The notes: generated by a model not told the origin, from the letters alone. 64,000 nucleotides of DNA from Shigella phage Ag3 (FJ373894), one strand, 5' to 3'; positions 3,767 to 59,542 are shown, numbered from the stretch's first letter. Made by a program: numbers and translations.

Positions 3767-4320
3767 TAGAACTCCAGGGTCAGAGGGGTTTCTGTGGACT
3801 TGTCGTAATCCGCGCCGCCAGCAGCACGCAGACGATTGCGATCGTTCTTGCGCTTGTGTGCCAGCATGTAAGTCTCAATATCGATCTCCATGTAAGAACA
3901 CGCAGCCGACAGGAAGAACATGAGGGTCTCGACACAAGGTTCGTTCATGAACTGCCCAAGGCGATACGTCACACCGCGATGCCCAACAGCACCCAAAGCA
4001 GATGGGGTGAATTCGCGACCACCGAGGATTTCGAATTCTTCTTCGATCTCGCCTTTGGTGCGGTCCATAAGGATGAAGCACAGCATGAAGTGTACCACGT
4101 CCACCAGTTCATAGACTGCGTTCGCATGGTGAAACCCGACGTCGTTGCCATAGACCTTCCAGTCGCGACTGGTTTCGTCAAGGAACTCTGCCCATTCACG
4201 ATAGATGGAGTTGATGACTGCGTTCTGACTCCATACATTCTTCCACTCTTCCCCAAAGTAGGCCACGTTGGTGGCCTTTTGGAGTTCGAGCAGGCTTTTG
4301 ATATGCCCTGCTGTGATCAT
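3766..4320 (-). CDS. all-alpha NTP pyrophosphohydrolase (dimeric dUTPase/dCTPase, MazG-like)
   Basis: 184 aa; acidic helical motifs (EEW..W, EFLDE, HF) typical of dimeric dUTPase/MazG fold; adjacent to nucleotide-metabolism genes. Confidence 0.45.
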   Translation of the reverse strand: MITAGHIKSLLELQKATNVAYFGEEWKNVWSQNAVINSIYREWAEFLDETSRDWKVYGNDVGFHHANAVYELVDVVHFMLCFILMDRTKGEIEEEFEILGGREFTPSALGAVGHRGVTYRLGQFMNEPCVETLMFFLSAACSYMEIDIETYMLAHKRKNDRNRLRAAGGADYDKSTETPLTLEF

Positions 4321-4886
4321 TTACGTTCTCCGTAGAATTTAACGAACGGTGCCCAACCATCAAATGGATTGAGGAATTCGTAGTCCACTTCCATCTTGTC
4401 AATGAAAGCCTCTATATCGTCCTCTATGATACCAGCGCGGTCGGCCTTTGAAATGCGGGTGATAGGACATTTCGTACTCAGCGCCCATTCATATTCCTGA
4501 GGGGTACGCAGGTCACTCACGATGTAATGGACGTGAGGGTTCTGCTCTACCAGAGGAAGCTGGAAGCGCTTGAAGAACGCCAGGAACAGATCGGGCTGTA
4601 CATAACGCAAGCCCGTATCGCTGCCGAGATGGAGCCAGATCTGCCTTGGGGTTAAGCCCTTGGGGTTATCAGGGTGGACGTAAGGAACGTCCTTCACGGC
4701 ATCCTCTACCTCCGCTGGCAGCCATGGGTAGATGTAGTTGGCAACCCGGCGCAGTTCGTCTGAGAAAGAAAGACGCTGGATATCCATATCGCCCTGTAGA
4801 TGGTGATAGCTGATGAGGGACTCCAAACAGAAGTCCTTACCGGAGCGCTTGCGCCCCGTAAAGAATTCGAGGTTCGGGTACATCAT
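4317..4886 (-). CDS. 1: deoxynucleoside monophosphate kinase (T4 gp1-like)
   Basis: 189 aa; N-terminal P-loop FTGRKRSGKD matching T4 gp1 GVKRSGKD motif. Confidence 0.7.
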   Translation of the reverse strand: MMYPNLEFFTGRKRSGKDFCLESLISYHHLQGDMDIQRLSFSDELRRVANYIYPWLPAEVEDAVKDVPYVHPDNPKGLTPRQIWLHLGSDTGLRYVQPDLFLAFFKRFQLPLVEQNPHVHYIVSDLRTPQEYEWALSTKCPITRISKADRAGIIEDDIEAFIDKMEVDYEFLNPFDGWAPFVKFYGERK

Positions 4887-5932
4887 ACCACACCTTCCAG
4901 GAACTTAGGATCAACAATCTTGCGGTCAACTGGAGAATGGGTGAGCGCAATGTTCAAACCATGATCCTGAATCCGGTTCATGTTGATGAGCTTATCGTTC
5001 AGTTTGCAGTACAGGCAGTATGCCATTTGCATGATCAAGCCACGATCAGCATCATATTCCTTCAGGTGAGCAACCAAAGTTTCCCACGGGCTACCGATAT
5101 CACAATGATGGAGCACACCAGTGAACAGATTGCGGATATGGTTCTGGTTGGTCACGTTCTTGAAGTGAATCATGGAGTTGATGAACCCAGCTTCTACTTT
5201 GGTGTCCTTCGTGATCTTGCCCAGCTGCTTCTGGCTGACTTCATTGTTGTAGTAATGAAGATTGTTGGAGAAGAGCTTGTACTGGCCGACATCAACATCC
5301 AGCACCTGAGCAATCACTTCCTGAAGAATAGAGAACTCAATGAAGTTGATTGAACTCATCCCCCACAGAACATCCTGTGAGCGGTTGATGACCGTCAGGT
5401 TCAGGCGACCGTCAACGATGGCGAACAACAGAGCCAGGTTACACACCATGTCTTTAGTCTTCGCTTCGCCACTCTCGCTGAACTTCGCCAGGCCAGCATC
5501 TGAATCCAGAGCCGGATCATAGATGGTGAGGTACGCCTGACGGGTGTTTGGGTTCTTGCGCAGGCGGTTGATGACGCTATCCAGCTGGCCATGGGCGTAC
5601 AGACGCGGACCATAAGCGGCTCGCCATGTTACCCCATCATCCGAAAAGTTAGCAGCGCGAGGCAATACGCGTGACAGGAACTTTATGTCGTTGCGGCCTG
5701 ACAACACCCAGAAGGTCTCCCCAATAGCTGCGATAGCCGATGAGTTGCGACCTTCAACGGAGAGCCAGCGGTCACGAATATCGGAAACAGTGATCGTCAC
5801 ACCATCAAGGAATCGGGTGCCGTCCGTGTTGATCTCCGCGTTACCAGGGTCCGACTCAATTCCGTATTCGCGGATAGCCAAGACAGCCTGCTTCAGCATG
5901 TCATTGTTGTTAATTGCTTTGATTTCCATCAA
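4883..5932 (-). CDS. thymidylate synthase-family pyrimidine C5 methylase/hydroxymethylase
   Basis: 349 aa; TS-fold motifs (RQAYLTIYDP, catalytic Cys in KDMVCN, RSQDV...SINF with Asn at the pyrimidine-specificity position); longer than canonical ThyA and Cys-Asn replaces Pro-Cys-His. Confidence 0.75.
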   Translation of the reverse strand: MMEIKAINNNDMLKQAVLAIREYGIESDPGNAEINTDGTRFLDGVTITVSDIRDRWLSVEGRNSSAIAAIGETFWVLSGRNDIKFLSRVLPRAANFSDDGVTWRAAYGPRLYAHGQLDSVINRLRKNPNTRQAYLTIYDPALDSDAGLAKFSESGEAKTKDMVCNLALLFAIVDGRLNLTVINRSQDVLWGMSSINFIEFSILQEVIAQVLDVDVGQYKLFSNNLHYYNNEVSQKQLGKITKDTKVEAGFINSMIHFKNVTNQNHIRNLFTGVLHHCDIGSPWETLVAHLKEYDADRGLIMQMAYCLYCKLNDKLINMNRIQDHGLNIALTHSPVDRKIVDPKFLEGVV

Positions 5933-6603
5933 TCAATACTCCCAAAATCACGACAGAGGAATGCCATTACAGCCTGGTCTACTGTTAGACCGTGAGACTT
6001 CATCATACCTGCGGCCACCGTAGGGAACAAGCCTTTATGGCGCTGGCGATGGTCTTGAACACGCTCCCACTTCTCTACCACGAGGCTCTCATTGAAGTCC
6101 GCACCGCCGTTGCGTGATTTCACACGGGCGATGCACGTTTCAAGAGGGGTGTCCATGAAGAGAACAACCAGTTCGCGCGGTGGGCGCGTCAGGCGGGGGA
6201 TCCAGGAACTCAGTAGAGTTGAAGGGATGATGCCTTCGAAGATCACATCGTATACCTGATATTCAGGTAGATCAGCGATGCTCAGGGCGAAGAGCATTTG
6301 TTCAGTGTCCTTCAGTGAATCAACCCCCTTGGACTTTGACTTGTCATATTTGCCGATACACACCACGTTGAATGACGGGCAGACCGTCAACATAATCTTG
6401 CCGTCATGTGTCACAACATACGCCTGAGGATCCCTCTCCGCCAGCTGAGACGGTACGGTGGATTTGCCGCTACCATTGGAGCCTTTGACGTAATAGAGTT
6501 GCCCTCGTGCTGGGTAGATCCCCTTTACGACGGGTGGTTTAATGAATGTGTGGACGGGGCGCTTGAGCAACCCCTTGAGGGAGTAGGACATAGACTGCTC
6601 CAA
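5929..6603 (-). CDS. P-loop kinase (nucleotide/nucleic acid kinase family)
   Basis: 224 aa; Walker A GSNGSGKST; immediately downstream of the TS-family gene. Confidence 0.55.
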   Translation of the reverse strand: MEQSMSYSLKGLLKRPVHTFIKPPVVKGIYPARGQLYYVKGSNGSGKSTVPSQLAERDPQAYVVTHDGKIMLTVCPSFNVVCIGKYDKSKSKGVDSLKDTEQMLFALSIADLPEYQVYDVIFEGIIPSTLLSSWIPRLTRPPRELVVLFMDTPLETCIARVKSRNGGADFNESLVVEKWERVQDHRQRHKGLFPTVAAGMMKSHGLTVDQAVMAFLCRDFGSID

Positions 6604-48592: not shown

Positions 48593-50794
48593 TTAAATTT
48601 TGATCTCTTTCTCTGCCAGTTCGGCAGTGACCTTGTACTTCACACCATCCACTTCAACTTCCATGGTGGACTCTTCCAGGTCGAGGTCGGTGAACCAGCC
48701 GTGGCCAGCAACGATACCATACACCACTTTAGACAGCGTCTTGTTCAGGGCGCGGACTTCGGTGATGGCCGCCTTGGCAGCAGCGTCGATCCAGTTTTCG
48801 ATCAGCTGTTTCTGTACGGCTTCAGGCACGGCAGTGATCGCAGGAGACTTCACGAATGCCTCGTACTCTTTCAGGGCATTGGCGATGAACAAGTCACCCG
48901 CATTGAGTTTCTTGTTCTCGGCAATCTTTTTCTGTACTGCCGCGATGCTAGGCAGAGAAGACGCCCCAGCGATCTTAACGTTCAGCTCACGGCTCATGTA
49001 GACATCCGTGGAGTCCTTCAGTTCGGTCTTCGGTGAGAAGCCGTAATCGCGGATGCCGTAGGAGGACAGGAACTCGGCCGCCTCAGCGCCGTACTGTACT
49101 GCCAGGCCTTTGGCGTTGCCTTTGCCAACCAGTTCATCACGGAAGAACTTCAGCACCTTCTGCTTGCCTTTCAGGGCTTCCAGACGGACGTTGTCAGCAA
49201 AGAACTGAGCAGCACTGATGTTCTTGACCATGGCGCGGTTGACCAGCGGTACGCTTTCCAGGTTCAGGACAAACACTTCCGGACCACCAAACACATGGAC
49301 GCCCATCTGACACAGATTGGTTACAACTTCAACATCAGCCCTGAACGGCAGAGTCTTCACGTTGATGATGCCGTCTTTGACGATGGTGTAGTTGCGCCAC
49401 TGGAAAGTATCCAGTTCTTCAGGCAGACCGAACTTCTTCTGCACGAACTCCGGAATCGCCACAGTGCCGTGTTGGACAGTGCGTACACTGATATTAGGGC
49501 GTTCGGAGTTATAGACCAAATCGCTGATTGGCACAACACCCAGATCGTTGGTAGGTTCGAACGTCGGGTTCCACTCTTCGTGCTCGGCCAGCTTGAGAGC
49601 CAGGGCTTTGCGCTCTTCTTTGGACTCGGCGTTCGCGATCTGTTCTGCCAGCTTGTCTTCGGTATCGTCCAGTTTCTGAGCCGTACCGCGACCGATGCTC
49701 TTGTAGGAGAACATAGGATGTTTGGTAGCAACACACACGCCAGCTTCAGCCAGATACGTCAGCACGTCAACGACGGTCGTCGCATCTTCAGCTGGAACCA
49801 GGTCATAGTCAATACCGTCAACGCCGCGCAGCTGGTCATCAACGATGGCCTGGGTCAGATCAACTTTGATGTTGGAGTAGTCCTGCTTGGTGAAGCAGTT
49901 GCTGTACTGTTTGATGAAGCGAACGTCACCAGTTTTCTTCAGTGCAGCCCACACCAGGTCTGCGTCCATGATGTGTACGCCGTAGAACGCCAGCACGTAT
50001 GCCGCCTGGATGTCCGCCAGTGCATCAAGCTGGTCGATCATGTTAGGATTGACGACCCACAGCTTCGTGACGCTCTCAGGGATGCTCACGTGGCCGATAG
50101 GATGGTCTTCATCCGGCTGTACCGCCAGCACAGTTGCTACGCCGTTTTCAACGTAGATGGCATGATCATACAGCAACGGAACATCAACAACCACTTTCGG
50201 CACCGAGGACTTCAGTACGTTTTCCAGCTCGGTCTGATATTCGGTCTGGCCTTCGGCGAACACGTGAGTCGCGCCGGAACGTTCAGACATCAGAGCCAGC
50301 AGTTCGCGGTTGCAGTACCAGCCGTATTCGATGAATGTGACGTTGTCGAAAGCGGAAGGAAGTTTTTCGGCGGTCTCCAGGATCTCATTGGAGCGCCAGC
50401 AGTTGTCATAACCATCGGTCATGAACGCCAGGTTGTTGACATAGCCAGGCTTCTTCAGACTACGAGCGGTGTCTACAGCCAGACCCAGAGGTTCCACGAA
50501 TCCAGTGCATCCGGACGGTTGTAGGAAGCGGTCGATCAGTTTGTTCAGCTCGCTCAGGTCAGATGCTGCACTAACCTGACGGCCAGCGAACACAGTACCA
50601 AAGTCGCCACGGGATGAGAAATACAGAACACTCACAGTGTCTTCCGGCTTCACCAGAGAAGGCAGGTTCTCCTTCAGATGCTTACGGACTTCAGGGAGCG
50701 CACGGTACATCGAATAAGAGATGTCCACAACGATTACATGGTTGGACGGGGCAGCAGTCGCAACCGCATTCTTAAATTCTAATGATTCAATCAT
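48593..50794 (-). CDS. von Willebrand factor A (MIDAS) domain protein
   Basis: ORF 48593..50878, probable start at internal Met (MIESLEF); N-terminal vWA with DxSxS (VVDISYSM) and TDG (FMTDGYDN) motifs; about 730 aa. Confidence 0.6.
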   Translation of the reverse strand: MIESLEFKNAVATAAPSNHVIVVDISYSMYRALPEVRKHLKENLPSLVKPEDTVSVLYFSSRGDFGTVFAGRQVSAASDLSELNKLIDRFLQPSGCTGFVEPLGLAVDTARSLKKPGYVNNLAFMTDGYDNCWRSNEILETAEKLPSAFDNVTFIEYGWYCNRELLALMSERSGATHVFAEGQTEYQTELENVLKSSVPKVVVDVPLLYDHAIYVENGVATVLAVQPDEDHPIGHVSIPESVTKLWVVNPNMIDQLDALADIQAAYVLAFYGVHIMDADLVWAALKKTGDVRFIKQYSNCFTKQDYSNIKVDLTQAIVDDQLRGVDGIDYDLVPAEDATTVVDVLTYLAEAGVCVATKHPMFSYKSIGRGTAQKLDDTEDKLAEQIANAESKEERKALALKLAEHEEWNPTFEPTNDLGVVPISDLVYNSERPNISVRTVQHGTVAIPEFVQKKFGLPEELDTFQWRNYTIVKDGIINVKTLPFRADVEVVTNLCQMGVHVFGGPEVFVLNLESVPLVNRAMVKNISAAQFFADNVRLEALKGKQKVLKFFRDELVGKGNAKGLAVQYGAEAAEFLSSYGIRDYGFSPKTELKDSTDVYMSRELNVKIAGASSLPSIAAVQKKIAENKKLNAGDLFIANALKEYEAFVKSPAITAVPEAVQKQLIENWIDAAAKAAITEVRALNKTLSKVVYGIVAGHGWFTDLDLEESTMEVEVDGVKYKVTAELAEKEIKI

Positions 50795-50957
50795 CGTTAT
50801 TGCCTTCTTCAGGGTTGTCTTCGGCCTCACCTTCCGGCTTGACCAGCATGTGTTCCAGGAAATCGCGATTGAGTTCAATCTGACTCATCAGCGTTTCCGA
50901 TGGGCTAAAGCGGCGGTCGAGGTTGTCGACGCCCGCACGTTCAAATGGTTTGGCCAT
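50787..50957 (-). CDS. small acidic protein
   Basis: ORF 50787..51014 with start at internal Met (MAKPFER). Confidence 0.35.
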   Translation of the reverse strand: MAKPFERAGVDNLDRRFSPSETLMSQIELNRDFLEHMLVKPEGEAEDNPEEGNNDD

Positions 50958-50958
50958 A

Positions 50959-51318
50959 TCAGCCGCCCTTGACTTCAGTAACGCCAGGGATCGACCGCAG
51001 GGCTTGGCGAACATCGGCGACCTTGTCCTTCTCCACAGTCACCACAATGAACGAGAAGTTCCTTTGTTTACGCCATTTCTTGAAGTGTGAGACAAGCTGT
51101 ACTTCGTTTTCTTCTGCGCCGCTTCCCCCTTCTACAGGGACGTAAACGACACCAGATTCAATAACTACATCGGCGTCATCGGGGATATCTGCGTCTACAT
51201 CTTCGCGATATTCACCATTGACTTTGATGCAATGATCGTCGTGCCAAGCGCCGTTCACCCAATATTCATCATCGTGGTAGTACGCATTGAATTCCGCGCC
51301 TTTCATCTTCACAGACAT
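50959..51318 (-). CDS. hypothetical acidic protein
   Basis: 119-aa ORF immediately downstream of Prs-NAMPT fusion gene. Confidence 0.45.
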   Translation of the reverse strand: MSVKMKGAEFNAYYHDDEYWVNGAWHDDHCIKVNGEYREDVDADIPDDADVVIESGVVYVPVEGGSGAEENEVQLVSHFKKWRKQRNFSFIVVTVEKDKVADVRQALRSIPGVTEVKGG

Positions 51319-51360: not shown

Positions 51361-53004
51361 TCAGATTTGTGAGGCCAGTTCCGCCACCAGAGGAGCGGCG
51401 CGGACACGCGCATCTTCCAGAGTTTGAGTGTTGAAGAACTTGCCGTCACGATACACCAGCTGGTGCTGGTTGTCGGCGTCTTGTACCTGATCAAAGGTGA
51501 TACCGTCAACCAACACTAGTTTACCCTGAGAGTCTTTAATGACTTTAAGGAAACCACGCGCAGACTTTTTAGTCCCGCCTTTATCGGTCTTCGGCTCTTT
51601 GAAGATCTCACGGAATTCACCGTTCACCTTACCAGCCGTTGCTTTCACCGCCGTGCCAGTACTGTCACGGGTGTTCATCTGGTAGGTGTAGGAACCGATA
51701 CCGAACACCACGTTGATGGAAGCGAAGTTCCGGCCAGCCAGACGGCTAAAGATCTGGTCTTCACGCGCCAGGGTGATGGAGTCGCCGTAAATCAGACCGA
51801 TGTGTTCGTCCAACAGGAAGTGGCCAGTTTCGGTCTGGGTCCCGCCAAAGATCTCCCACAGGCGCTGGATAGAGCCGACTGCTTCAGAACGGCTGATGAT
51901 ATTACGGTCGTCTGCCATCAGAGAGTTGATCGTGCCTTCGCCTGTAATCAGGTGATAGGTGTTCGTCTCTTCGATGTGAATGACTTCGGTGCTGCTAGAC
52001 ACGCCGCTGATGTTCAGCGTGGCGCGGTCTTTGAACCCCTCAATTCGGTAGCCGCCGACGATATGAACTGGGTCGCCCGAGTCAGGGCGGATCACGACTT
52101 TACCGTTACGCGCCATGATAATATCTTTCAGGCGCGGCAGATAGTCGTCGATGACCTGCCAGTAATCCCACGCATCAGACACGATGCTGACGATGCCATC
52201 AGGATACACGTCCTGCACCAGGCGGCGGAAGGTTTCGAATTCGCCATCCTTCGTACCCATACACATCACGGCGTGTTCGGTAGCCGCAACAGAACCAGCA
52301 ACGACATAGTCTTCGTCGATGTCTGCGCCATAATACTCTTCAACGAACGTGCGCCCACCGTCGCAGATATCATCGACCACCACCAGATAACGGTCTTTGA
52401 TCAGTTCAGGGTTTGTAATGCTCACCCCAATGATCTCACCAGTCTTGGTGTCACGGTTCTTGTGTCCGTAGACAACAGGAACGCCATCCAATGACAGGCT
52501 GAGGGCTTCGGTCTTCTTCGCCGCGCCGCCGTCAGGAGCTACCAGCACAGCGTTGTTCCCACGGATGAACCAGCCCAGATACTGCCGCACGATGTAATCT
52601 TGCGGGACAACATGGACGTTGTTGATCAGAGAAGTCACAACATGGCTGTGAGGGTCTTTGATCGCCACACGGTCAAAGTTCATGCTATTGATGAACTCAG
52701 CCGCCCACTTCACGGACAGAGGCTCTCCGAAGTCGCAATGGCGGTCCTGGCGAGCATACGGGAAGTAAGGGATATACGCATGGAAGGTCGTCAGACGGTC
52801 CACGTTACCCAGGCCGCGCACGGCGTTAACCAGCAGTGCCAGCTCAACGAAGTCGGCTGATGATTTGATGTGGGCATCAATCACCACGTTCTGGACGTGG
52901 CCGACAGGGATACCAGCCTTTTGGATCTTGATATGTTCCTCACCACCTGGGAAGGTGAAGTGTTTGTAGAACACATCTTGGTCGTTCAATTTCAAACGAA
53001 ACAT
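51361..53004 (-). CDS. fusion protein: ribose-phosphate pyrophosphokinase-like N-terminus joined to nicotinamide phosphoribosyltransferase-like C-terminus
   Basis: 547 aa; residues ~1-225 carry Prs motifs (FPGGE, PYFPYARQDR, VLVAPDGGAAKK, VVVDDICDGGRT); residues ~226-547 match the NAMPT C-terminal half (YYG..VAATEHA, VSIVSDAWDYW, RPDSGDP). Confidence 0.75.
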   Translation of the reverse strand: MFRLKLNDQDVFYKHFTFPGGEEHIKIQKAGIPVGHVQNVVIDAHIKSSADFVELALLVNAVRGLGNVDRLTTFHAYIPYFPYARQDRHCDFGEPLSVKWAAEFINSMNFDRVAIKDPHSHVVTSLINNVHVVPQDYIVRQYLGWFIRGNNAVLVAPDGGAAKKTEALSLSLDGVPVVYGHKNRDTKTGEIIGVSITNPELIKDRYLVVVDDICDGGRTFVEEYYGADIDEDYVVAGSVAATEHAVMCMGTKDGEFETFRRLVQDVYPDGIVSIVSDAWDYWQVIDDYLPRLKDIIMARNGKVVIRPDSGDPVHIVGGYRIEGFKDRATLNISGVSSSTEVIHIEETNTYHLITGEGTINSLMADDRNIISRSEAVGSIQRLWEIFGGTQTETGHFLLDEHIGLIYGDSITLAREDQIFSRLAGRNFASINVVFGIGSYTYQMNTRDSTGTAVKATAGKVNGEFREIFKEPKTDKGGTKKSARGFLKVIKDSQGKLVLVDGITFDQVQDADNQHQLVYRDGKFFNTQTLEDARVRAAPLVAELASQI

Positions 53005-53114: not shown

Positions 53115-53909
53115 TTATTTGTAGGAATCGACGATGGCCTTGAACAGCGCGTCCTTCTGGTCGGTTGGGATATAATCCGCCGGAGCCAGCAAGAGCCGCC
53201 TGATGTCTTCACAGCAGCCTTTCTGTTCTTCGGCGCTCATCTTATCCCAAGTGGTGGCATTAAAGTAGATCCCACCCTTGTAAGCCGCCGTGCAAGTCTT
53301 GGCCAGGCGAACAACGAGTTCAGAATACAGTTCATCAGGCCGCATGTGTGAACGCAAATATGTTTCCACTCTGGCCTGGACTTTGCTGTTGTGTTGGTCA
53401 TTGTGAAGTTCGTTGTCGGTATGAATAAATTCAGCACCGAATCCGCGACTTGGGTCTCGTGGATGATGGAACACGAAAGACTGGCTATGACCTTTCAAGA
53501 ATTCCATCCCAGCCATATGATTTATCTTCCCCCTTTCGGAGATGTACTGCAAGATATCTATCTTCGCATCGGCGGTGGCCGCCTCCAACATCTGCTTCTC
53601 CACAACGGCGCGGTAGGCTTCCAGTTCCCACAACTGGGAGAAGGTCTTGTCATAGGCCAGCTTCTTACCCAACTCTTCATCAAAGTTGGCAGGGTCGATG
53701 GAAGTAGAGCTATTCTTGCCCCAGACGACGAAGCCGTTGTCCATCTTGAAGTGGCAGGTGATGACACGATGACCGCCGACTTCACGGTCTTCATAGATGA
53801 CTTCGGCAATGTGGGACTTCAGGAGGTCTGGAGACAGCTTCAGACCTTCGCGAACAGATTTACCCTTCAGCTCAACACCTTTGGGTTCATTACGATTGAT
53901 GGTTGCCAT
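53115..53909 (-). CDS. hypothetical protein
   Basis: ORF 53115..53942, start at internal Met (MATINRN). Confidence 0.45.
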   Translation of the reverse strand: MATINRNEPKGVELKGKSVREGLKLSPDLLKSHIAEVIYEDREVGGHRVITCHFKMDNGFVVWGKNSSTSIDPANFDEELGKKLAYDKTFSQLWELEAYRAVVEKQMLEAATADAKIDILQYISERGKINHMAGMEFLKGHSQSFVFHHPRDPSRGFGAEFIHTDNELHNDQHNSKVQARVETYLRSHMRPDELYSELVVRLAKTCTAAYKGGIYFNATTWDKMSAEEQKGCCEDIRRLLLAPADYIPTDQKDALFKAIVDSYK

Positions 53910-54291
53910 TCTGTGTTTCCCGTAATTGGTTGCATACAACAACTACTTTACGGCACATGTCGATATCGAACAAGCCAATATGACACTCACGCTTCTTTAT
54001 CCCCAGCTTATGCGCCAGCCAACTGTAAGCGTCGCTTCTGCTCCTCTCTCCGCTTTTCCACAATGGGTCAAACGATCTATGGGCTTTTCGCTTCTCGGCA
54101 CGGAGAGCGGCATTCGCCATCCTTCCCAGAGGTTGTCTGCCGTCTCCATGGGCATGGCAACCGACACGAGCGTCACATGGAGTGCATACCCAGAACTTCA
54201 GATTGCGGAGGTCAGGGCGATGAGGGTGGAGGACGTCACCACCGACGAATTCGGCTGGGAGGCCACAGTAATCACAGATGACAGGTTTCAT
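53890..54291 (-). CDS. zinc-finger protein
   Basis: ORF 53890..54318, start at MKPVICDYCG; CxxC and CTPCDARVGCHAHG motifs. Confidence 0.45.
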   Translation of the reverse strand: MKPVICDYCGLPAEFVGGDVLHPHRPDLRNLKFWVCTPCDARVGCHAHGDGRQPLGRMANAALRAEKRKAHRSFDPLWKSGERSRSDAYSWLAHKLGIKKRECHIGLFDIDMCRKVVVVCNQLRETQNGNHQS

Positions 54292-54351
54292 ATTCTTTGT
54301 CCAAAAGAAACCCCGCACATGGCGGGGTTGCTCAGGCCGAGGCCAACAGGG

Positions 54352-54723
54352 TTATTTCAGCAACGCTTCCAGTTCTTCAACAGATTTGTTTTCCAGCTCC
54401 TGCTGTTTCTTACGCTGGATCAACTCCAGGATAACCTGGTTGTTCGCCTTACGCTCTGCCGCGTCTTTGCTGTCGTCACGCTCTTTCAGCTTAACGCCGA
54501 TGATGTGCTTGACAACGTCGAAGCGCAGCTGCAGTTCGGAGTCAACGGCGCTTTTGGTGCCGATGAAATCTTCTTCATCAGTTTCCGCTGCCTTCACCTG
54601 ACGGCTCAGGCTCTTCGCCATTTCGTTCAGGGCATTCAGGCTCAGATCCCAAACCTGCTCAACAGACAGCAGACCTTTGTTGGATTCGAAGCGCAGTTTC
54701 AGACGGGTTGCTTTATCGAACAT
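54352..54723 (-). CDS. hypothetical coiled-coil protein
   Basis: 123 aa, charged helical. Confidence 0.45.
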   Translation of the reverse strand: MFDKATRLKLRFESNKGLLSVEQVWDLSLNALNEMAKSLSRQVKAAETDEEDFIGTKSAVDSELQLRFDVVKHIIGVKLKERDDSKDAAERKANNQVILELIQRKKQQELENKSVEELEALLK

Positions 54724-54767
54724 TTTACTATCCTCAATGATGAATGGGTTACAATTTCAAATTAGGT

Positions 54768-56786
54768 TTAGAACACAACTTTCACAGTGCGGTTGAACGA
54801 GCCGCTCACCTTCACGAACACGTGGTTGCGTTGGGTGGTAGAGAAGCCCAGACCGGACAGCTGCTCAGTGCTTGGCTGTACTTTAATCTTACCGCCTAAC
54901 ATTTCAAAAACCTTGCGGTGTTTATCAAGTTCCGGCTTCAGATATTCGTTGTAGAAGCCACGAGTGCCGACAGGGTTAGCACAACCTTCCAGGATGAAGA
55001 ACACGTGCTTGTTGCCCGTCTGCTCGCCGTCCCAATGGTTTGGTGAGTTCAGAACCAGCTGCACTTTCTGGAATACCGAGGTCTTGATGCCCCAGATTTC
55101 CTGCGAGCGTTCGTCGTCCTTCAGGGTAGAACGGATGTCTACCACTTGTCCAGCGCGGACATCAATCACAACAGCCAGAGTGCGATCTTTGTGCTTCAGG
55201 CCAGGATGCGAAAAACGCTTGGTCTGGCCTTTGTATTCAACTTCGATTTCGAAGCCCATATCACAGGTTTCACGCTGGCTGAAGTTAGTGACATAGAACT
55301 CGTACAGACCATCACGCAGCTTGCGTTCATCGCTGAAGAAGATGTTCTCCACCGGGCGGCGGTTGGGGTCAATACCGTCCATACCGTTCATGTCGATATC
55401 CAGGGTTGCGCCAGTTGCCGAGCGACGGTTGTGGTAATACACATGATTGTGTAAAGGATCGTTCAGGCTCAGATCCAGGTCATCGTTGTTATGCCACGCC
55501 AGGGACACACGGAGGAAACCGTCAACGTTGCCGCCTGCCGTCTTCACGCGCTCTTTGATGGAGTCGGCCACTTCACCGTTGTATGACCAGCTGAAGCCGT
55601 TGTTCCACTTGAACAGGTTAGGAGCGCCTGCGGTAGCCGGGGCGATCAGGGACATCAGGTTGCCAGTGTGAGAGTTTTCAACCAGCACTTCCAGGGAATG
55701 CGCCTTTGGCAACACGTTGGTCAGGAAGTCGTCGATGGTGATTTCTTCAACCTTGTCCAGGGACTTGGTCGGAGTCTTCACTTCAGACGCCAGCTGAGCA
55801 AACGGGTCCATCTTCTTCTGCGCTGCCAGGTCGGCAAACAAAACGTTGTTGATGGTCAGGTCGTCATATACAGCATAACGGCGGCCAAGGGATTCGGTCA
55901 GACCCAGCGCTTCGACTTCTTTCTGTGCGTTTTCAATCATGGACTTCGTGACCAGTGCAGTCGGGCGCTTATAGTTCTGAGGAGCGACTTTGGCTTCAAA
56001 GGACTTCACGGCGGTTTCCAGATCCCGACCTTCGTTGAGGTCTACCAACAGAGAGCCAATCACGGTATTACGGATGCCGTGAGGGGTGTGTCCGTTTGCA
56101 CGGTAGCCAGTACGCCAAGCCCACAGAGCGCGTTTCTCTTCTGCAGTTTGTTCGTACAGGGTCTTGCTCGTCACGAACGCCTGCACAGCAGCTTTGTGCT
56201 CTTCACCACGATACAGAGAATTCTGATCAATCAGTTCCAGAACGATTTCGGCCGATTCCAGAGACAGTTCACGCAGGCCGCGCTCAAACACTTCAATCGC
56301 CTGGCGGATTTCACCCTTCTTAGAAGCGATGACATCAGCCCGCAGAACATAGCTGGGCAGCAGGTCGGTGTGGAAGTGGTTGTAGGTGCGGACATTACCG
56401 TCTTTCATTTCGTGATTCGACTCAACACCGACTTTCTTGGTATCGTTGAAGTACACGTCGACGATTGCGTGTTGCTTGACATACGCAGACAGCGCCGCAG
56501 CGACAACGTCGTATTCGTTACCCAGCTGAATGTTATCCCAGATAGAGATCACGTTCAGGTCGGCGTCGATGGTCACCACACCGCCGATGTTACGGATGAA
56601 TTGTTTGCAGCAGGTGCAGTCGTGCTCGGTACGCTCACGGTAAAGCGGGTTGGTGCCAGCAGGGAAAGAAGACAGATACAGATCCCACAGAGCATCTTTA
56701 TCGATGTTGGTCATGAACAGACCAGTTGCTGACATGGCCAGCACGTTGTTATTAACAGCTACTGCGAAGGGCTTAAATTCTGACAT
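54768..56786 (-). CDS. large hypothetical protein
   Basis: 672 aa; no Walker or polymerase motifs recognised. Confidence 0.5.
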   Translation of the reverse strand: MSEFKPFAVAVNNNVLAMSATGLFMTNIDKDALWDLYLSSFPAGTNPLYRERTEHDCTCCKQFIRNIGGVVTIDADLNVISIWDNIQLGNEYDVVAAALSAYVKQHAIVDVYFNDTKKVGVESNHEMKDGNVRTYNHFHTDLLPSYVLRADVIASKKGEIRQAIEVFERGLRELSLESAEIVLELIDQNSLYRGEEHKAAVQAFVTSKTLYEQTAEEKRALWAWRTGYRANGHTPHGIRNTVIGSLLVDLNEGRDLETAVKSFEAKVAPQNYKRPTALVTKSMIENAQKEVEALGLTESLGRRYAVYDDLTINNVLFADLAAQKKMDPFAQLASEVKTPTKSLDKVEEITIDDFLTNVLPKAHSLEVLVENSHTGNLMSLIAPATAGAPNLFKWNNGFSWSYNGEVADSIKERVKTAGGNVDGFLRVSLAWHNNDDLDLSLNDPLHNHVYYHNRRSATGATLDIDMNGMDGIDPNRRPVENIFFSDERKLRDGLYEFYVTNFSQRETCDMGFEIEVEYKGQTKRFSHPGLKHKDRTLAVVIDVRAGQVVDIRSTLKDDERSQEIWGIKTSVFQKVQLVLNSPNHWDGEQTGNKHVFFILEGCANPVGTRGFYNEYLKPELDKHRKVFEMLGGKIKVQPSTEQLSGLGFSTTQRNHVFVKVSGSFNRTVKVVF

Positions 56787-56901
56787 GATGTAGTCTTCCT
56801 GTTTCAGTTCAAATGTGCGCCCCGTTTGCCAGGGCGCTTCGTTTAAGTGAGGTCAATAATACGTTGAAAAAAGTTATTGAAGAATGAAGTAAAGGGAATC
56901 T

Positions 56902-58122
56902 TTATTCAGGTTTCTTCAAACGGTCCAGCAAATTGACGGAACCACGTTTGAGCACGACTTCATCACAGCGCTTTTTGTATTCCCCACCGCCGTCATAGCT
57001 GACCTTGCCCCGAGGTTTTTCGCCGCGCCCAACCGCCTCAACACAGCGAGTGTACTTGCTCAGTTCACAGAACATGTTCTCCAGCTGCATAACGTTCATG
57101 CATTGGTCTACAGGCTCTTCGGCCGACCAGAATTGCTCGCGAACATACCCATATTGGGAGTACACTGCGTCCTGATTATCCCGTAGCCAGAATATGCATT
57201 CTTCGTGAGTCATGCCGTCCTTGTTCAGGAACAGCAGATCAATACCTGCGCGACAGCCCGGTCCGGCGATCGTGAAGTGGTTCTCACTGAACGGATAACC
57301 AGGCATGTACGTGAAGTCAACCCAGATCTGGTATGCCAGGAATGGACCAAGACCTTCGATGTCGTCGTACATGCGCTGGTATACTTCCAGAGGAGTACCA
57401 AGGCGCAGCAGGTCATGGAAGTAATTTGGATACTTGTTGACGAATGCCTTCAGGGAACGGATGACACGCATTGGCATGTACGGCTCCCAGCCTTCTATGG
57501 TGTAGAAGTCCGGCTCTGCTTCAGCAATAGCCTTGGCTTCCTTATAATCCATGTTCTGGGTCGAACCGTCCTTACAGATCAGGTTCACCATCATCCCACC
57601 GAAGCGCTGCTCTTTGTGGTTGACAACCAGCTCAGGGAAAGCCAGGCATTGCTTCAGACCGCCTGTGTTGAAGGCATTGGTGAATACTTTACCGCCGTCG
57701 GCCTCGAACTTCTGAAGTCGTTCGCGGGTTGCGTCAAGGTTGATCTTGGCGAATTCTTTGATCGTCATCGCGCCGCCGATAGCCTGGATCGGATCCCAGA
57801 GGTTGAACATGCGGAACAGAACGCAGTTGAACATCTTGTCTGCCATGCCCAGAGCATCGTTCTTGACGATGTTATTGATCAGGTTGAGAGACTGCCTGTC
57901 GTGCTCTCTCCGGACGTTACAGAACTTGACCTGCCGTAGTATAGGATTATTGGTCCAAGGGGCAGGAAGACGCTGGACGTCCTTCTTGACGTGGATCTTA
58001 TAGCGCTCGCTCATCCATTCGTAAGACAGGCGGGTATGGGTCGGACTGAGAACCGGTTTGGCCGACTTTATCTTTTCTTCACGGACACCGCAGTACGGGA
58101 CGTCCAGGGCTTTATCTTTCAT
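56902..58122 (-). CDS. hypothetical protein
   Basis: 406 aa; no recognised motif. Confidence 0.5.
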   Translation of the reverse strand: MKDKALDVPYCGVREEKIKSAKPVLSPTHTRLSYEWMSERYKIHVKKDVQRLPAPWTNNPILRQVKFCNVRREHDRQSLNLINNIVKNDALGMADKMFNCVLFRMFNLWDPIQAIGGAMTIKEFAKINLDATRERLQKFEADGGKVFTNAFNTGGLKQCLAFPELVVNHKEQRFGGMMVNLICKDGSTQNMDYKEAKAIAEAEPDFYTIEGWEPYMPMRVIRSLKAFVNKYPNYFHDLLRLGTPLEVYQRMYDDIEGLGPFLAYQIWVDFTYMPGYPFSENHFTIAGPGCRAGIDLLFLNKDGMTHEECIFWLRDNQDAVYSQYGYVREQFWSAEEPVDQCMNVMQLENMFCELSKYTRCVEAVGRGEKPRGKVSYDGGGEYKKRCDEVVLKRGSVNLLDRLKKPE

Positions 58123-58191
58123 GGTATCCTCTTAGAATACGAAAAACAGAGGCCATTATAGCCTCTGTTGTTTAGTGAATAACTGTATATC

Positions 58192-59061
58192 TTAATCGAT
58201 ACGGGTCAGCTGGGTTATAGATGGTTGCACTGGGCTGGCCACATAGATACGGACGTTGGCTTTCCATTCACCCCAGATCAACGGCAGAGTTGGGAAGTTG
58301 TCTTCATTGAAAACAAACACGGGAATATAACTCTCGACTGTTTCACCAGAGAACGCCTGGAAGCCCATCTTGGCGTACCCCATAATCTCGTCAACAAAGT
58401 CGAACGGAGCGAAGGCAACACCAGCGTGTTCGTTGCATCCGAGTTGACCTGGGGTAGCCGTGCCCGTCAGAATGATTTCGGTGATCTGGCGCTTAGGCTC
58501 GGTGGTCAACATATCAGAGAAGTCCGGCTCTTTGAATGCTGCCATGTTCTTCAGGAACTTGCCAGCCGGGTACTCTTTGCCGTCGACGGTGATGGTGTCT
58601 ACCACTTTGATGCACGCCTGAGGGAATTCCCCTTCGATGCGTAGACTTTCGCGTGGGAAGCCTTTGTTGTAGTAGTAATCCAGTGCAGGCACAACTTCAC
58701 CTTCATTACGGATGAACTTGCTCATGTTGGAAGCATAAACGCGCTGTAGGCACTCATCGCCGTCGAAACCAGCAATGTGAGCCACGCCGTCATTGACGGT
58801 GGTGATATCACCCTGAGCGTCCATGATGTCCTTCAGGATTTCCTGAATGGTTCTGGTCTGGTAAGGTTCTTGTTTAGGTGTGAGCACCAGATCCAGTTTC
58901 ACATCGCAATCGTAGTACGCCGCCTCTAACAGTTCGCGGGTCTCTTCCAGCACCAGTTTCGCCTGATTGCGGATCTTACCAAAGTCGGGCGATGTGACGT
59001 CGCCCTTTGCATTACCGAAAGCCAGATTCAGATTCACGTTCTTAGAAAATGTAGTTGTCAT
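58192..59061 (-). CDS. hypothetical protein
   Basis: 289 aa; occupies the position downstream of regA where T4 has gene 43. Confidence 0.45.
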   Translation of the reverse strand: MTTTFSKNVNLNLAFGNAKGDVTSPDFGKIRNQAKLVLEETRELLEAAYYDCDVKLDLVLTPKQEPYQTRTIQEILKDIMDAQGDITTVNDGVAHIAGFDGDECLQRVYASNMSKFIRNEGEVVPALDYYYNKGFPRESLRIEGEFPQACIKVVDTITVDGKEYPAGKFLKNMAAFKEPDFSDMLTTEPKRQITEIILTGTATPGQLGCNEHAGVAFAPFDFVDEIMGYAKMGFQAFSGETVESYIPVFVFNEDNFPTLPLIWGEWKANVRIYVASPVQPSITQLTRID

Positions 59062-59077
59062 GATTTAGCGACTCCAG

Positions 59078-59542
59078 TTATTCGCTTTTGGCCTTTGTAG
59101 GCCGGATAATGTATTTTGGGACCAGCTTCCATTCAGGAACCTGATCGTGTTTAACCACTTTAATGCGTGACATATCGGCGGCTTCGGTGACCTGCTCGGG
59201 ATGAATGACCTTCACCATGTTCCACTGCTCAAGCAGCTTGATGATGCGGTTCATCCTCAGGACATCTTCGCGGTTAAACCCGTTGTAATGTCCGTCCAGC
59301 ATAAACAGATGCTTGAAGTGGACGATATAATACTTGCCATACTTATGAAGAATATGACAAGTCTGATACAGAGTATTCGGCTCTTGGCGCGTGTTTACCC
59401 CAATTCGGCTCAGTGTTTCCTTGATCCCCAGGAATATTCCTGGCCGATCTTGGTTCAATTGAACTTCAACCATACAATCAACGATGCTGGCCTCATCGTT
59501 GACGGCTGAAATGTTCAATATGTCTAGCGTATTGCGCGCCAT
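59078..59542 (-). CDS. regA: translational repressor RegA
   Basis: 154 aa; YQTCHILHKYGKYYIVHFK and C-terminal EWKLVPKYIIRP match T4 RegA; position after gene 62 as in T4. Confidence 0.85.
   Translation of the reverse strand: MARNTLDILNISAVNDEASIVDCMVEVQLNQDRPGIFLGIKETLSRIGVNTRQEPNTLYQTCHILHKYGKYYIVHFKHLFMLDGHYNGFNREDVLRMNRIIKLLEQWNMVKVIHPEQVTEAADMSRIKVVKHDQVPEWKLVPKYIIRPTKAKSE

Follow-up and report, generated by a model that had tools for sequence, protein, structure and literature searches.

A conserved six-gene block of Shigella phage Ag3 probably combines three unrelated functional units

The six-gene block at positions 53115-59061 of the window, by which we mean the whole 64,000-nucleotide stretch of Shigella phage Ag3 DNA (FJ373894) that was analysed, is probably a conserved early or middle-gene segment of the Ackermannviridae into which three unrelated functional units are packed. 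Ag3 belongs to the Ackermannviridae (Agtrevirus); the 672-aa, 123-aa and 264-aa proteins are byte-identical to its gp134, gp133 and gp131, and the 289-aa protein shows 100% identity to an Ag3 protein. The block is mostly explained. It lies in an already-published genome and holds one clearly assignable gene of a characterised hypermodification programme, and the only open lead in it is the pair of genes coding for the 672-aa and 123-aa proteins (672/123 pair). The features of the block and its borders are as follows.

51361-53004: PRPP-synthetase/NAMPT-type gene, directly downstream of the block
53115-53909, minus strand: 264-aa gene, Ag3 gp131 (PF13876; ATG start)
53890-54318, minus strand: DUF3268 zinc-finger gene, 142 aa (PF11672; phrog_1934)
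54309-54329, minus strand: terminator-like hairpin 3' of the 123-aa gene, which overlaps the zinc-finger gene at its start (8-bp stem, 6 G-C, T-run)
54352-54723, minus strand: 123-aa gene, Ag3 gp133 (phrog_2018)
54768-56786, minus strand: 672-aa gene, Ag3 gp134 (precomputed Pfam PF26675; phrog_1735)
56902-58122, minus strand: aG/PT-PPlase clade 1 gene, 406 aa (ORF listing; Pfam HMUDK_hel)
58145-58169, minus strand: terminator-like hairpin between the 289-aa and 406-aa genes (11-bp stem, then a T-run)
58192-59061, minus strand: MazG-like gene, 289 aa (ORF listing)
59078-59542: regA, directly upstream of the block (Translat_reg, E 1.9e-34)

The ORF listing showed six minus-strand ORFs, all in one direction, with intergenic gaps of 16-115 nt and an overlap of the 142-aa and 264-aa genes, so that the co-oriented, tightly packed block predicted between regA and the NAD module is indeed present. 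The 264-aa gene has an alternative TTG start (53115-53942, 275 aa); relatives are annotated with the 264-aa form, which begins at the ATG at 53909. The two terminator-like hairpins are only suggestive as unit boundaries, and the total number of such hairpins in the region is not above the shuffled-sequence expectation. At least 80% of the region was covered at one place in 100 phage records, and the records listed are Ackermannviridae or unclassified relatives. As the original prediction had stated, none of the six proteins matched a Walker, polymerase, ligase or glycosyltransferase family. In the window, neither the DUF3268 RNA motif nor any other Rfam family was matched.

By sequence comparison, the 406-aa protein was shown to be the Agtrevirus orthologue of ViI gp160 (orf00160), with 84% identity over 407 aa; the gene order regA, MazG-like gene, gp160/406-aa gene, 672-aa gene is common to ViI and Ag3. 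The protein matched PF18723 (HMUDK_hel) at 275.1 bits (cut-off 25, E 8.5e-82), with residues 30-363 corresponding to profile positions 4-278 of 281. Its predicted fold is helix-hairpin-helix and DNA-glycosylase-like, and matches PUGT and HhH glycosylases. The motif E348-N349-x-x-C352-E353 is invariant in 37 aligned sequences down to 43% identity, and the spacing of its Glu-x-x-x-Cys equals that of Glu243 and Cys247 in PUGT (PaMx11 gp46), the catalytic residues of which are Glu243, Thr244 and Cys247 (PMC11472151). In the alignment of clade 2, E282 and C287 are invariant. The 406-aa protein gave no HMM match to the clade-2 family PF18724 (ADDT) and no detectable sequence similarity to ViI gp247 (BLASTP E 1.1). 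The profile-profile comparison of clades 1 and 2 was not significant (hhalign probability 0.6), so the grounds for equating the Glu/Cys motifs are their spacing and the fold, and not a residue-level structural alignment. The 406-aa protein is a structural relative of amino-acid:DNA transferases and not a member of their family.

In ViI-like phages, 5-hmdU is incorporated instead of T, phosphorylated on the DNA, and then converted to 5-NeOmdU or thymine. ViI gp160 belongs to a set of five ViI proteins that yielded 5-NeOmdU when lysates containing them were mixed (PMC5889632), and the 5-NeOmdU pathway is accounted for by gp67 or gp243 as the kinase, gp247 for serine transfer and gp226 for decarboxylation (PMC8989533). 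In Ag3, hypermodification genes coding for dUTPase_2, dNMP kinase, a dUMP-hydroxymethylase-like TS and a gp67 kinase orthologue were located at 3769-6591 of the window; the orthologues of the ViI thyA-like protein (78% identity) and gp67 (88% identity) lie at 4913-6591. The ViI genes for the second kinase, the serine transferase and the PLP decarboxylase adjoin the DNA polymerase gene. In Vibrio phage D504, a clade-1 gene lies within about 8 kb of TS-like, dNMP kinase, dUTPase_2, HMUD2 kinase and clade-2 transferase genes. The 289-aa and 406-aa proteins probably belong to the ViI-like thymidine-hypermodification programme.

We propose that the 406-aa protein would flip 5-hmdU or 5-PmdU from the helix and that Cys352 would attack C6. 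Because the clade-2 paralogue alone performs serine transfer, the 406-aa protein probably handles the other fate of 5-PmdU, which would be thymine restoration at non-hypermodified sites, or acts in a different sequence context. In phage DNA that is only partially hypermodified, the step from 5-hmdU back to thymine lacks an enzyme, and the clade-1 aG/PT-PPlase may fill this gap. In the literature on thymidine-hypermodifying phages we found no thymine-restoring enzyme named, and in the hypermodification literature, that on ViI included, no biochemical activity reported for clade 1. The base-flipping fold together with the conserved Glu/Cys pair makes the clade-1 paralogue a testable candidate for this step, by which thymidine-hypermodifying phages revert part of their 5-hmdU to thymine.

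A non-enzymatic role of the 406-aa protein, as a base-flipping accessory presenting 5-hmdU to the P-loop DNA kinase, appears rather unlikely. The family is fused to a kinase in SP10 gp186 (PMC5889632, Table 3), its Pfam name, "5-hmdU DNA kinase, helical domain", fits a non-catalytic role, the predicted fold is that of base-flipping glycosylases, and the family is not among the enzymes given a step towards 5-NeOmdU (PMC8989533). However, stand-alone kinases, and the kinase domain of SP10 gp186 on its own, are able to phosphorylate 5-hmdU DNA (PMC8989533), the clade-1 gene adjoins neither 5-hmdU DNA kinase gene in the Ackermannviridae, and the transferase-like Glu-x-x-x-Cys pair is invariant across the aligned family.

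The 289-aa protein was matched to phrog_2144, "MazG-like pyrophosphatase", with E 1.2e-131, and to phrog_671 with E 6e-20; the Pfam MazG and dUTPase_2 models gave no match at E<0.1. The PHROG matches are annotated as MazG-like or nucleotide pyrophosphohydrolases, an annotation that we read as the all-alpha NTP pyrophosphohydrolase type; enzymes of this kind serve such phages in reshaping dNTP pools. It consists of an N-terminal catalytic domain of ~185 aa and a C-terminal extension of ~100 aa that is confined to the Ackermannviridae. In 10 homologues, down to 37% identity, E40, E43, D81 and D85 are invariant and E39 nearly so; the motifs E39/E40/E43, D81-G84-D85 and S111-N112-K115-F116 are invariant or nearly invariant. 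Among solved members only the MazG-like dUTPase DR2231 gave a profile match, a weak one (E 1.1) in the DxxxD...SNxSK segment. The N-terminal domain alone was found in N4-like and other phages and in a phiMAM1-like phage. Because N4-like and other phages that carry this domain have no reported connection with thymine modification, the link of the 289-aa protein to hypermodification is positional only. By analogy with the pathway-linked dTTPase/dUTPase of 5-hmdU phages, SH-Ab 15599 gp18 (PMC13458397), it could be a dTTP- or dUTP-specific enzyme. As such it would clear the competing canonical pyrimidine dNTP, dTTP or dUTP, and would work alongside the dUTPase_2-type enzyme whose gene adjoins that of the dUMP hydroxymethylase. 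The proteins of the block had been predicted to be unrecognised; this description no longer suits the 406-aa protein, with its very strong Pfam match, or the 289-aa protein, with its strong PHROG match.

In the 672-aa protein a conserved N-terminal region of ~420 aa precedes a TerD-like beta-sandwich and additional beta domains. The TerD beta-sandwich fold was found in it and is the sole recognisable part of the pair. The N-terminal 420 residues gave no structural match, Pfam TerD matched none of 54 relatives, and DUF2135 was matched weakly in 5 of them. The 123-aa protein gave no match in Pfam or the PDB. The two genes are direct neighbours in 82 of 85 loci from viruses or phages and in 77 of 80 cellular loci, and no other conserved neighbour was found in these loci. 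The 123-aa gene is the obligate downstream partner; in CR9, Karma, PBC6, AD45-P4 and Holyagarpour its homologue comes immediately after that of the 672-aa gene. The system comprises about 4900 sequence clusters, and its architecture and gene order are strictly fixed. It is carried by Ackermannviridae, Vequintavirinae, phiCbK-like, Bastille-like and jumbo phages and by bacterial chromosomes (actinobacterial, myxobacterial and others), where it forms an isolated cassette in variable regions with no phage genes nearby; in many unrelated virulent phages it adjoins replication genes. Under the preferred reading, these two genes are probably a cassette that is autonomous and moves horizontally, and their products are probably an enzyme that has a Ca2+-binding domain of the TerD type and a small partner. 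We consider it a tentative possibility that the pair is an undescribed autonomous system with a new nucleic-acid-directed or conflict-related activity, for which RNA repair would be a candidate in view of the rare placement between RtcB and RlaP, and that the clade-1 enzyme restores thymine.

That the cassette serves RNA repair or otherwise counters defence, and is what matters functionally in the block, is unlikely. In Bradyrhizobium Tv2a-2, RtcB lies directly upstream of the pair, and an HD_4 protein and an RlaP nucleotidyltransferase are encoded directly downstream; in one viral locus (L090), RtcB is directly downstream. RtcB nevertheless adjoins the pair in just 2 of 147 non-Ackermannviridae loci. 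In some phages the surroundings of the pair repeatedly include ligases and calcineurin-like phosphoesterases, but ligases are ordinary in phage replication modules, and no nuclease, ligase, kinase or phosphatase domain is recognisable in the pair itself. On a Micromonospora chromosome, the pair adjoins a NACHT NTPase, a SUKH protein and an IS481 transposase, and the Ter system, of which TerD domains are a part, has been implicated in resistance to phages (PMC7824862). Against this, the PADLOC component HMMs gave no significant match to any block protein or to the Micromonospora homologue.

The remaining two genes lie next to the NAD module. The predicted zinc-finger protein was identified as DUF3268 (PF11672, E 1.3e-35) in the 142-aa product. 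An N4 gp49/Sf6 gp66-like domain (PF13876, E 5.5e-12) is N-terminal in all 9 homologues of the 264-aa family, and a RyR domain (PF02026, E 1.9e-10) is present only in two 290-aa Kuttervirus-type homologues. The Ag3 264-aa protein gave no RyR match, and in its C-terminal region, which corresponds to the RyR-type domain, the alignment shows a gap of ~40 columns across the GWxYG...hP..vPY core. In Agtrevirus, the 264-aa gene is directly upstream of a PRPP-synthetase-like and NAMPT-like gene pair, and in Ag3 an in-frame deletion of 864 bp has joined these two genes into one. To judge from the sequence, both the gp49-like protein and the NAD+ module look degenerate in Ag3. The zinc finger and the gp49-like protein may be accessory genes beside a NARP1-type NAD+ module. 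A RyR domain of this kind has been shown to degrade or sequester Thoeris signals, and RyDEP, a phage RyR-domain defence-evasion protein, was found within a NARP1 locus (2026 preprint). The suggestion of an anti-defence role is partly supported by the RyR domain of homologues of the 264-aa protein, the core of which is missing in the Ag3 copy.

A single pathway of DNA modification or anti-defence made up of all six genes, as originally proposed, is very improbable. In its favour are the co-orientation and tight packing of the genes, the conservation of the entire block across the Ackermannviridae, and the presence of a hypermodification-family enzyme among the six. Comparative genomics, however, shows the 672/123 pair alone in unrelated phages and bacterial chromosomes. 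Genes coding for MazG-like, Pplase1, p264, vWA and regA accompany the 672-aa gene solely in 18 Ackermannviridae loci, and MazG-like, Pplase1, p264 or vWA were found with the pair in none of 67 viral and 80 cellular loci outside this family; a DUF3268 gene lies near the pair in four non-Ackermannviridae loci too. In the 14 kb around the D504 clade-1 (Pplase1) gene, which is beside hypermodification genes, no other gene of the Ag3 block was found. The in vitro 5-NeOmdU pathway requires none of the other five genes (PMC8989533), and the dUMP hydroxymethylase and 5-hmdU DNA kinase genes at 3769-6591 are outside the block. The idea of DNA modification is partly supported, for two genes (406 aa and 289 aa), and is not supported for the six as one pathway. 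A role of the large proteins in the virion or in replication is also very improbable: the block sits within a T4-like replication gene region and the 672-aa gene has polymerases, helicases and ligases as neighbours in other phages, but no structural or replication family was matched in Pfam, PHROGs or NCBIfam by any of the six (an assignment to such families, which would have refuted the original prediction, did not result), their PHROG categories are "unknown" or "other", and the pair also occurs on chromosomes away from phage genes.

The block is of wider interest for the thymine-restoration step and for the 672/123 family. The latter is among the larger phage protein families without annotation, and its function would annotate thousands of genes; the cassette is also carried by Ackermannviridae used in biocontrol.

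Among known systems, TerD is a Ca2+-binding tellurite-resistance beta-sandwich; in Ag3 a TerD-like sandwich is one domain within the 672-aa protein, the other ~550 residues match nothing and no other Ter components are encoded near the gene. The 264-aa gene resembles RyDEP in NARP1 (Adps and Namat) in its place beside NAD+ genes and in the RyR domain of its Kuttervirus-type homologues, but the Ag3 protein is without the RyR core and has the extra N4 gp49-like N-terminal domain. Like SH-Ab 15599 gp18 and DR2231, the 289-aa protein is MazG-like (by PHROG) with acidic EExxE and DxxGD motifs, and like gp18 it comes from a phage in which 5-hmdU takes the place of T in replication. It differs from both in its unique C-terminal extension of ~100 aa, and in Ag3 the dUTPase_2-type enzyme is the more obvious dTTPase/dUTPase candidate. 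The clade-2 transferases ViI gp247, M6 gp51 and PaMx11 gp46 (PUGT) belong to a Pfam family other than that of the 406-aa protein, and the 406-aa family, unlike gp247, is absent from the enzymes accounting for the serine-transfer pathway. Nothing of substance separates the 406-aa protein from ViI gp160, to which it is equal in length, position and Pfam family.

By ORF listing, six genes were found at 53115-59061 on the minus strand, all in one direction. They code for proteins of 289, 406, 672, 123, 142, and 264 aa, the last of which would be 275 aa long if started from an upstream TTG. The intergenic distances are 16-115 nt, and the final two genes overlap. The block described in the original prediction was thus correctly observed. 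Ag3 gp134, gp133, and gp131 are byte-identical to three of the block proteins, and another Ag3 protein matches the 289-aa protein at 100% identity, so the window comes from phage Ag3 itself or from an isolate almost identical to it. The Agtrevirus phages MK-13, P46FS4, and SKML-39 share 95-97% DNA identity with it. The gene order of the block is common to ViI, CBA120, and the Ackermannviridae phages of Dickeya, Klebsiella, and Serratia. On its 5' side lie regA, gp62, gp44, gp45, and a gene for a UvsW-type helicase, and on its 3' side a PRPP-synthetase/NAMPT-type gene. Two homing-endonuclease genes were seen in the Yersinia phage CAU_YEP3 (L001:10242-10460 and L001:14560-15216, in the locus fetched from this phage), one separating the 672-aa and 406-aa genes and the other separating gp44 and gp45; neither is present in the window. 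Farther 3', beyond the NAD module, a 761-aa protein with a vWA domain at the N-terminus (48593-50878, phrog_2426) and a conserved 119-aa protein (50959-51318) are encoded side by side. In relatives, an acyl-carrier-protein gene adjoins these two genes, which accompany the block in Ackermannviridae only.

Two terminator-like hairpins were located within the block:

58169-58145, coding (minus) strand, terminator-like hairpin between the MazG-like and 406-aa genes
54329-54309, coding (minus) strand, terminator-like hairpin 3' of the 123-aa gene

A GC-rich hairpin devoid of a T-run lies 5' of the 672-aa gene. The hairpins give only a hint of separate transcription units in the block because the number of terminator-like hairpins was not above shuffle expectation. 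An Rfam scan of the entire window at gathering thresholds gave no match, and therefore no DUF3268 RNA motif is present in it. For the 672-, 406-, 289-, 264-, and 123-aa proteins, neither single-protein nor profile searches of PDB sequences gave a significant match, and NCBIfam and PADLOC searches gave none for the block proteins.

The 406-aa protein matched Pfam PF18723 (HMUDK_hel, '5-hmdU DNA kinase, helical domain') with an E-value of 8.5e-82. Its orthologue in ViI is Vi01_130c (record note orf00160), which is 84% identical and occupies the same position beside the MazG-like gene and regA. This protein, ViI gp160, was listed by Lee et al. 2018 as 'aG/PT-PPlase1' (PMC5889632), that is, as a member of clade 1 of its family. 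In the same work, mixed lysates of five ViI proteins, gp160 among them, converted 5-hmdU DNA to 5-NeOmdU (PMC5889632). Lee et al. 2021 explained the pathway by three activities and gave gp160 no step (PMC8989533); these are the kinases gp67 and gp243, the serine:DNA transferase gp247, which belongs to clade 2, and the PLP decarboxylase gp226 (PMC8989533). Among the homologues of the 406-aa protein, E348, N349, C352, and E353 are invariant down to 43% identity. In the structure of the clade-2 enzyme PUGT, Glu243, Thr244, and Cys247 serve as metal ligands and as the nucleophile that attacks C6 (PMC11472151), and in the clade-2 alignment E282 and C287 form the invariant pair. The Glu-x-x-x-Cys spacing is therefore common to both clades. 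Clade 1 and clade 2 share no detectable sequence similarity, and hhalign comparison of the Pplase alignments was not significant. For this reason, we infer that the Glu/Cys motifs of the two clades are equivalent and claim no residue-level alignment. A PDB sequence search with ViI gp247 was without a match.

The genes for the pre-replicative 5-hmdU steps and the DNA kinase (3769-6591) are located about 47 kb from the block:

3769-4320, minus strand, dUTPase_2-type NTP-PPase, with a ViI orthologue
4320-4886, minus strand, dNMP kinase, with a ViI orthologue
4913-5929, minus strand, TS-like dUMP hydroxymethylase, with a ViI orthologue
5932-6591, minus strand, 5-hmdU DNA kinase, orthologue of ViI gp67

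No orthologue of gp243, gp247, gp226, or DNA polymerase was found within the window. In Vibrio phage D504, a TS-like gene and genes for dNMP kinase, dUTPase_2, HMUD2 kinase, and a clade-2 transferase lie within about 8 kb of the clade-1 gene. The gene context supports a role of the 406-aa protein in the hypermodification pathway. The DNA of these phages is initially made with 5-hmdU in full replacement of T, and phosphorylation on the DNA is followed by conversion either to 5-NeOmdU or to T. No named enzyme for the thymine branch was found in the accessible literature. In the mechanism we propose, the clade-1 enzyme would be the natural candidate, because it is a paralogue-like HhH protein with the Glu/Cys pair that occurs family-wide and stands outside the serine-transfer set. 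It might instead act on 5-PmdU in a different sequence context. The main rival explanation is that the 406-aa protein is a base-flipping, non-catalytic partner of the kinase, as the Pfam name of the family and the gp186 fusion of SP10 would suggest; the kinase domain, however, works without it, and the invariance of the Glu/Cys pair also speaks against this rival.

The 289-aa protein was assigned in PHROGs to the MazG-like pyrophosphatases (phrog_2144, E 1.2e-131; phrog_671, E 6e-20). The residues E39/E40/E43, D81-G84-D85, and S111-N112-K115-F116 are kept in ten homologues down to 37% identity. A profile of these homologues aligned with the MazG-like dUTPase DR2231 across the motif, with a weak and not significant E-value of 1.1. 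The N-terminal part of about 185 residues is found alone in N4-like phages, PAK_P1-like phages, and a phiMAM1-like Ackermannviridae phage. The C-terminal part of about 100 residues is specific to most Ackermannviridae, and in the database homologue search the full-length protein was confined to this family. Dedicated dTTPases lower dTTP in 5-hmdU phages, and recent work on phage SH-Ab 15599 characterized a dTTPase/dUTPase of the same broad fold class (PMC13458397). A dUTPase_2-type enzyme is already encoded in the Ag3 window, beside the dUMP hydroxymethylase. Judging by context, the 289-aa enzyme may act on a pyrimidine dNTP.

The original prediction took the whole block as a candidate DNA modification or anti-defence pathway. 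This is partly right for two genes and less well supported for one more, and it fails for the block as a single pathway: in the fetched viral or phage loci other than the 18 of Ackermannviridae, the pair of the 672-aa and 123-aa genes occurs without the other block genes, except for DUF3268 in four loci. Searches of the local Pfam, NCBIfam, PADLOC, and PDB sequence libraries with the 672-aa protein gave no match, and a Foldseek search of its model against PDB returned nothing under E 0.018. The protein database gives it a precomputed Pfam accession, PF26675. The family is large and uniform. Clustering at 90% leaves more than 5000 relatives; at 50% clustering there are 4933 representatives with E<=1e-3, 1232 of them with E<=1e-30. 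Of the 150 listed, most are 650-700 residues long and can be aligned over their whole length. For this region, ChubbyThor and Gloob carry the annotation 'Putative DNA-directed RNA polymerase', and KP12 that of a 'SAP domain protein'; both were discarded, as no search backed them. In the ViI record (L004:13301-15320), the orthologue is given as two overlapping CDS, Vi01_128c and Vi01_129c, of 183 and 491 aa. Both carry the note orf00158, and the split seems to reflect an error of the record (a frameshift or a sequencing error), not a true split.

The family was found in 544 phage records, which include Ackermannviridae, Vequintavirinae (CR8, CR9), Klebsiella phages of about 145 kb, phiCbK-like Caulobacter phages, Bastille-like phages of Bacillus, phages of Alteromonas and Pseudomonas, and jumbo phages. 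A homologue of the 123-aa protein (32-42% identity) is encoded by the next gene 3' in CR9, Karma, PBC6, AD45-P4, and Holyagarpour. Among the fetched viral or phage loci, the pair is adjacent in 82 of 85, and in two of the remaining three (L036 and L089) the contig ends shortly past the large gene. In phages it lies among genes of replication (ligase, DnaB-type helicase, PolA, helicases). Of the 67 loci outside Ackermannviridae, no more than 10 contain any one third gene family. A vWA/MoxR chaperone was rejected as the third partner, with AAA, MoxR, or DUF2201 genes near the pair in few loci only. Cellular genomes have the pair as well; it is present in many Micromonosporaceae, at ~40% identity, and also in myxobacteria, Bradyrhizobium, Sericytochromatia, and others. 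The small partner adjoins the large gene in 77 of the 80 cellular loci, which have no common flank. A fixed chromosomal context in Micromonosporaceae was likewise rejected, as no flanking family was common to more than 5 of 80 loci. The gene context was examined at two cellular loci. On the chromosome of Micromonospora sp. NBC_01392 (L167:1-5480), the pair is flanked by genes for a NACHT NTPase and a SUKH-family protein and by an IS481 transposase gene. The lack of conserved flanks over the 80 cellular loci points to a mobile cassette that resides in variable regions. In Bradyrhizobium sp. Tv2a-2 (L111:4604-10000), RtcB precedes the pair, which is followed by genes for an HD_4 protein and an RlaP nucleotidyltransferase, and in one viral contig RtcB is directly 3' of the pair (L090:10565-11737). 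This RNA-repair context is rare but repeated; with adjacency in just 2 of 147 loci, RtcB was rejected as a fixed partner. In the N-terminal 420 residues of the family, E51, D56, C57, C60, H137, R169, R239, D249, E264, R274, R302, and R303 are invariant, as are the DDLDL, LDxDxN, and VEN motifs in the family. This pattern of polar residues and motifs suggests that the 672-aa protein is an enzyme in which a metal-binding domain serves as sensor or adaptor.

The 142-aa protein is a DUF3268 zinc finger (E 1.3e-35). Its gene is unannotated in the MK-13 RefSeq record (L005:13470-13906); the ORF is intact in the window and annotated in ChubbyThor. The 264-aa protein (53115-53909) has an N4 gp49 / Sf6 gp66-like N-terminal domain, which is present in all nine homologues examined. 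Two Kuttervirus-type homologues of 290 aa (L014:10879-11751 and L017:10872-11744) contain a RyR domain (PF02026, E 1.9e-10); the Ag3 protein and the ViI copy do not have the approximately 40 alignment columns that contain the RyR core. A 2026 preprint shows the hydrolysis of cADPR Thoeris signals by a RyR-domain phage protein that is encoded within a NARP1 locus, and the sequestration of these signals by some relatives. At 51361-53004 of the window, a clean in-frame deletion of 864 bp joins both NAD genes; its junction has an 8-nt overlap (~52340-52347). The deletion is defined by comparison with MK-13, P46FS4, ChubbyThor, and one more Agtrevirus-like locus (L015). The product is a single 547-aa ORF composed of PRPP-synthetase-like (Adps-type) and NAMPT-like (Namat-type) parts, which phrog_12872 (547 positions) matches end to end. 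The fusion probably inactivates the NARP1-type NAD+ reconstitution pair. On sequence grounds, both the 264-aa protein and the NAD module look degenerate in Ag3, because the RyR core is missing from the former and the genes of the latter are fused by the deletion. The block is part of a published genome, and its assignable gene is part of a described system. In the Agtrevirus relatives, the 264-aa gene lies directly 5' of separate PRPP-synthetase-like and NAMPT-like genes, and this arrangement of the two genes is the NARP1 architecture.
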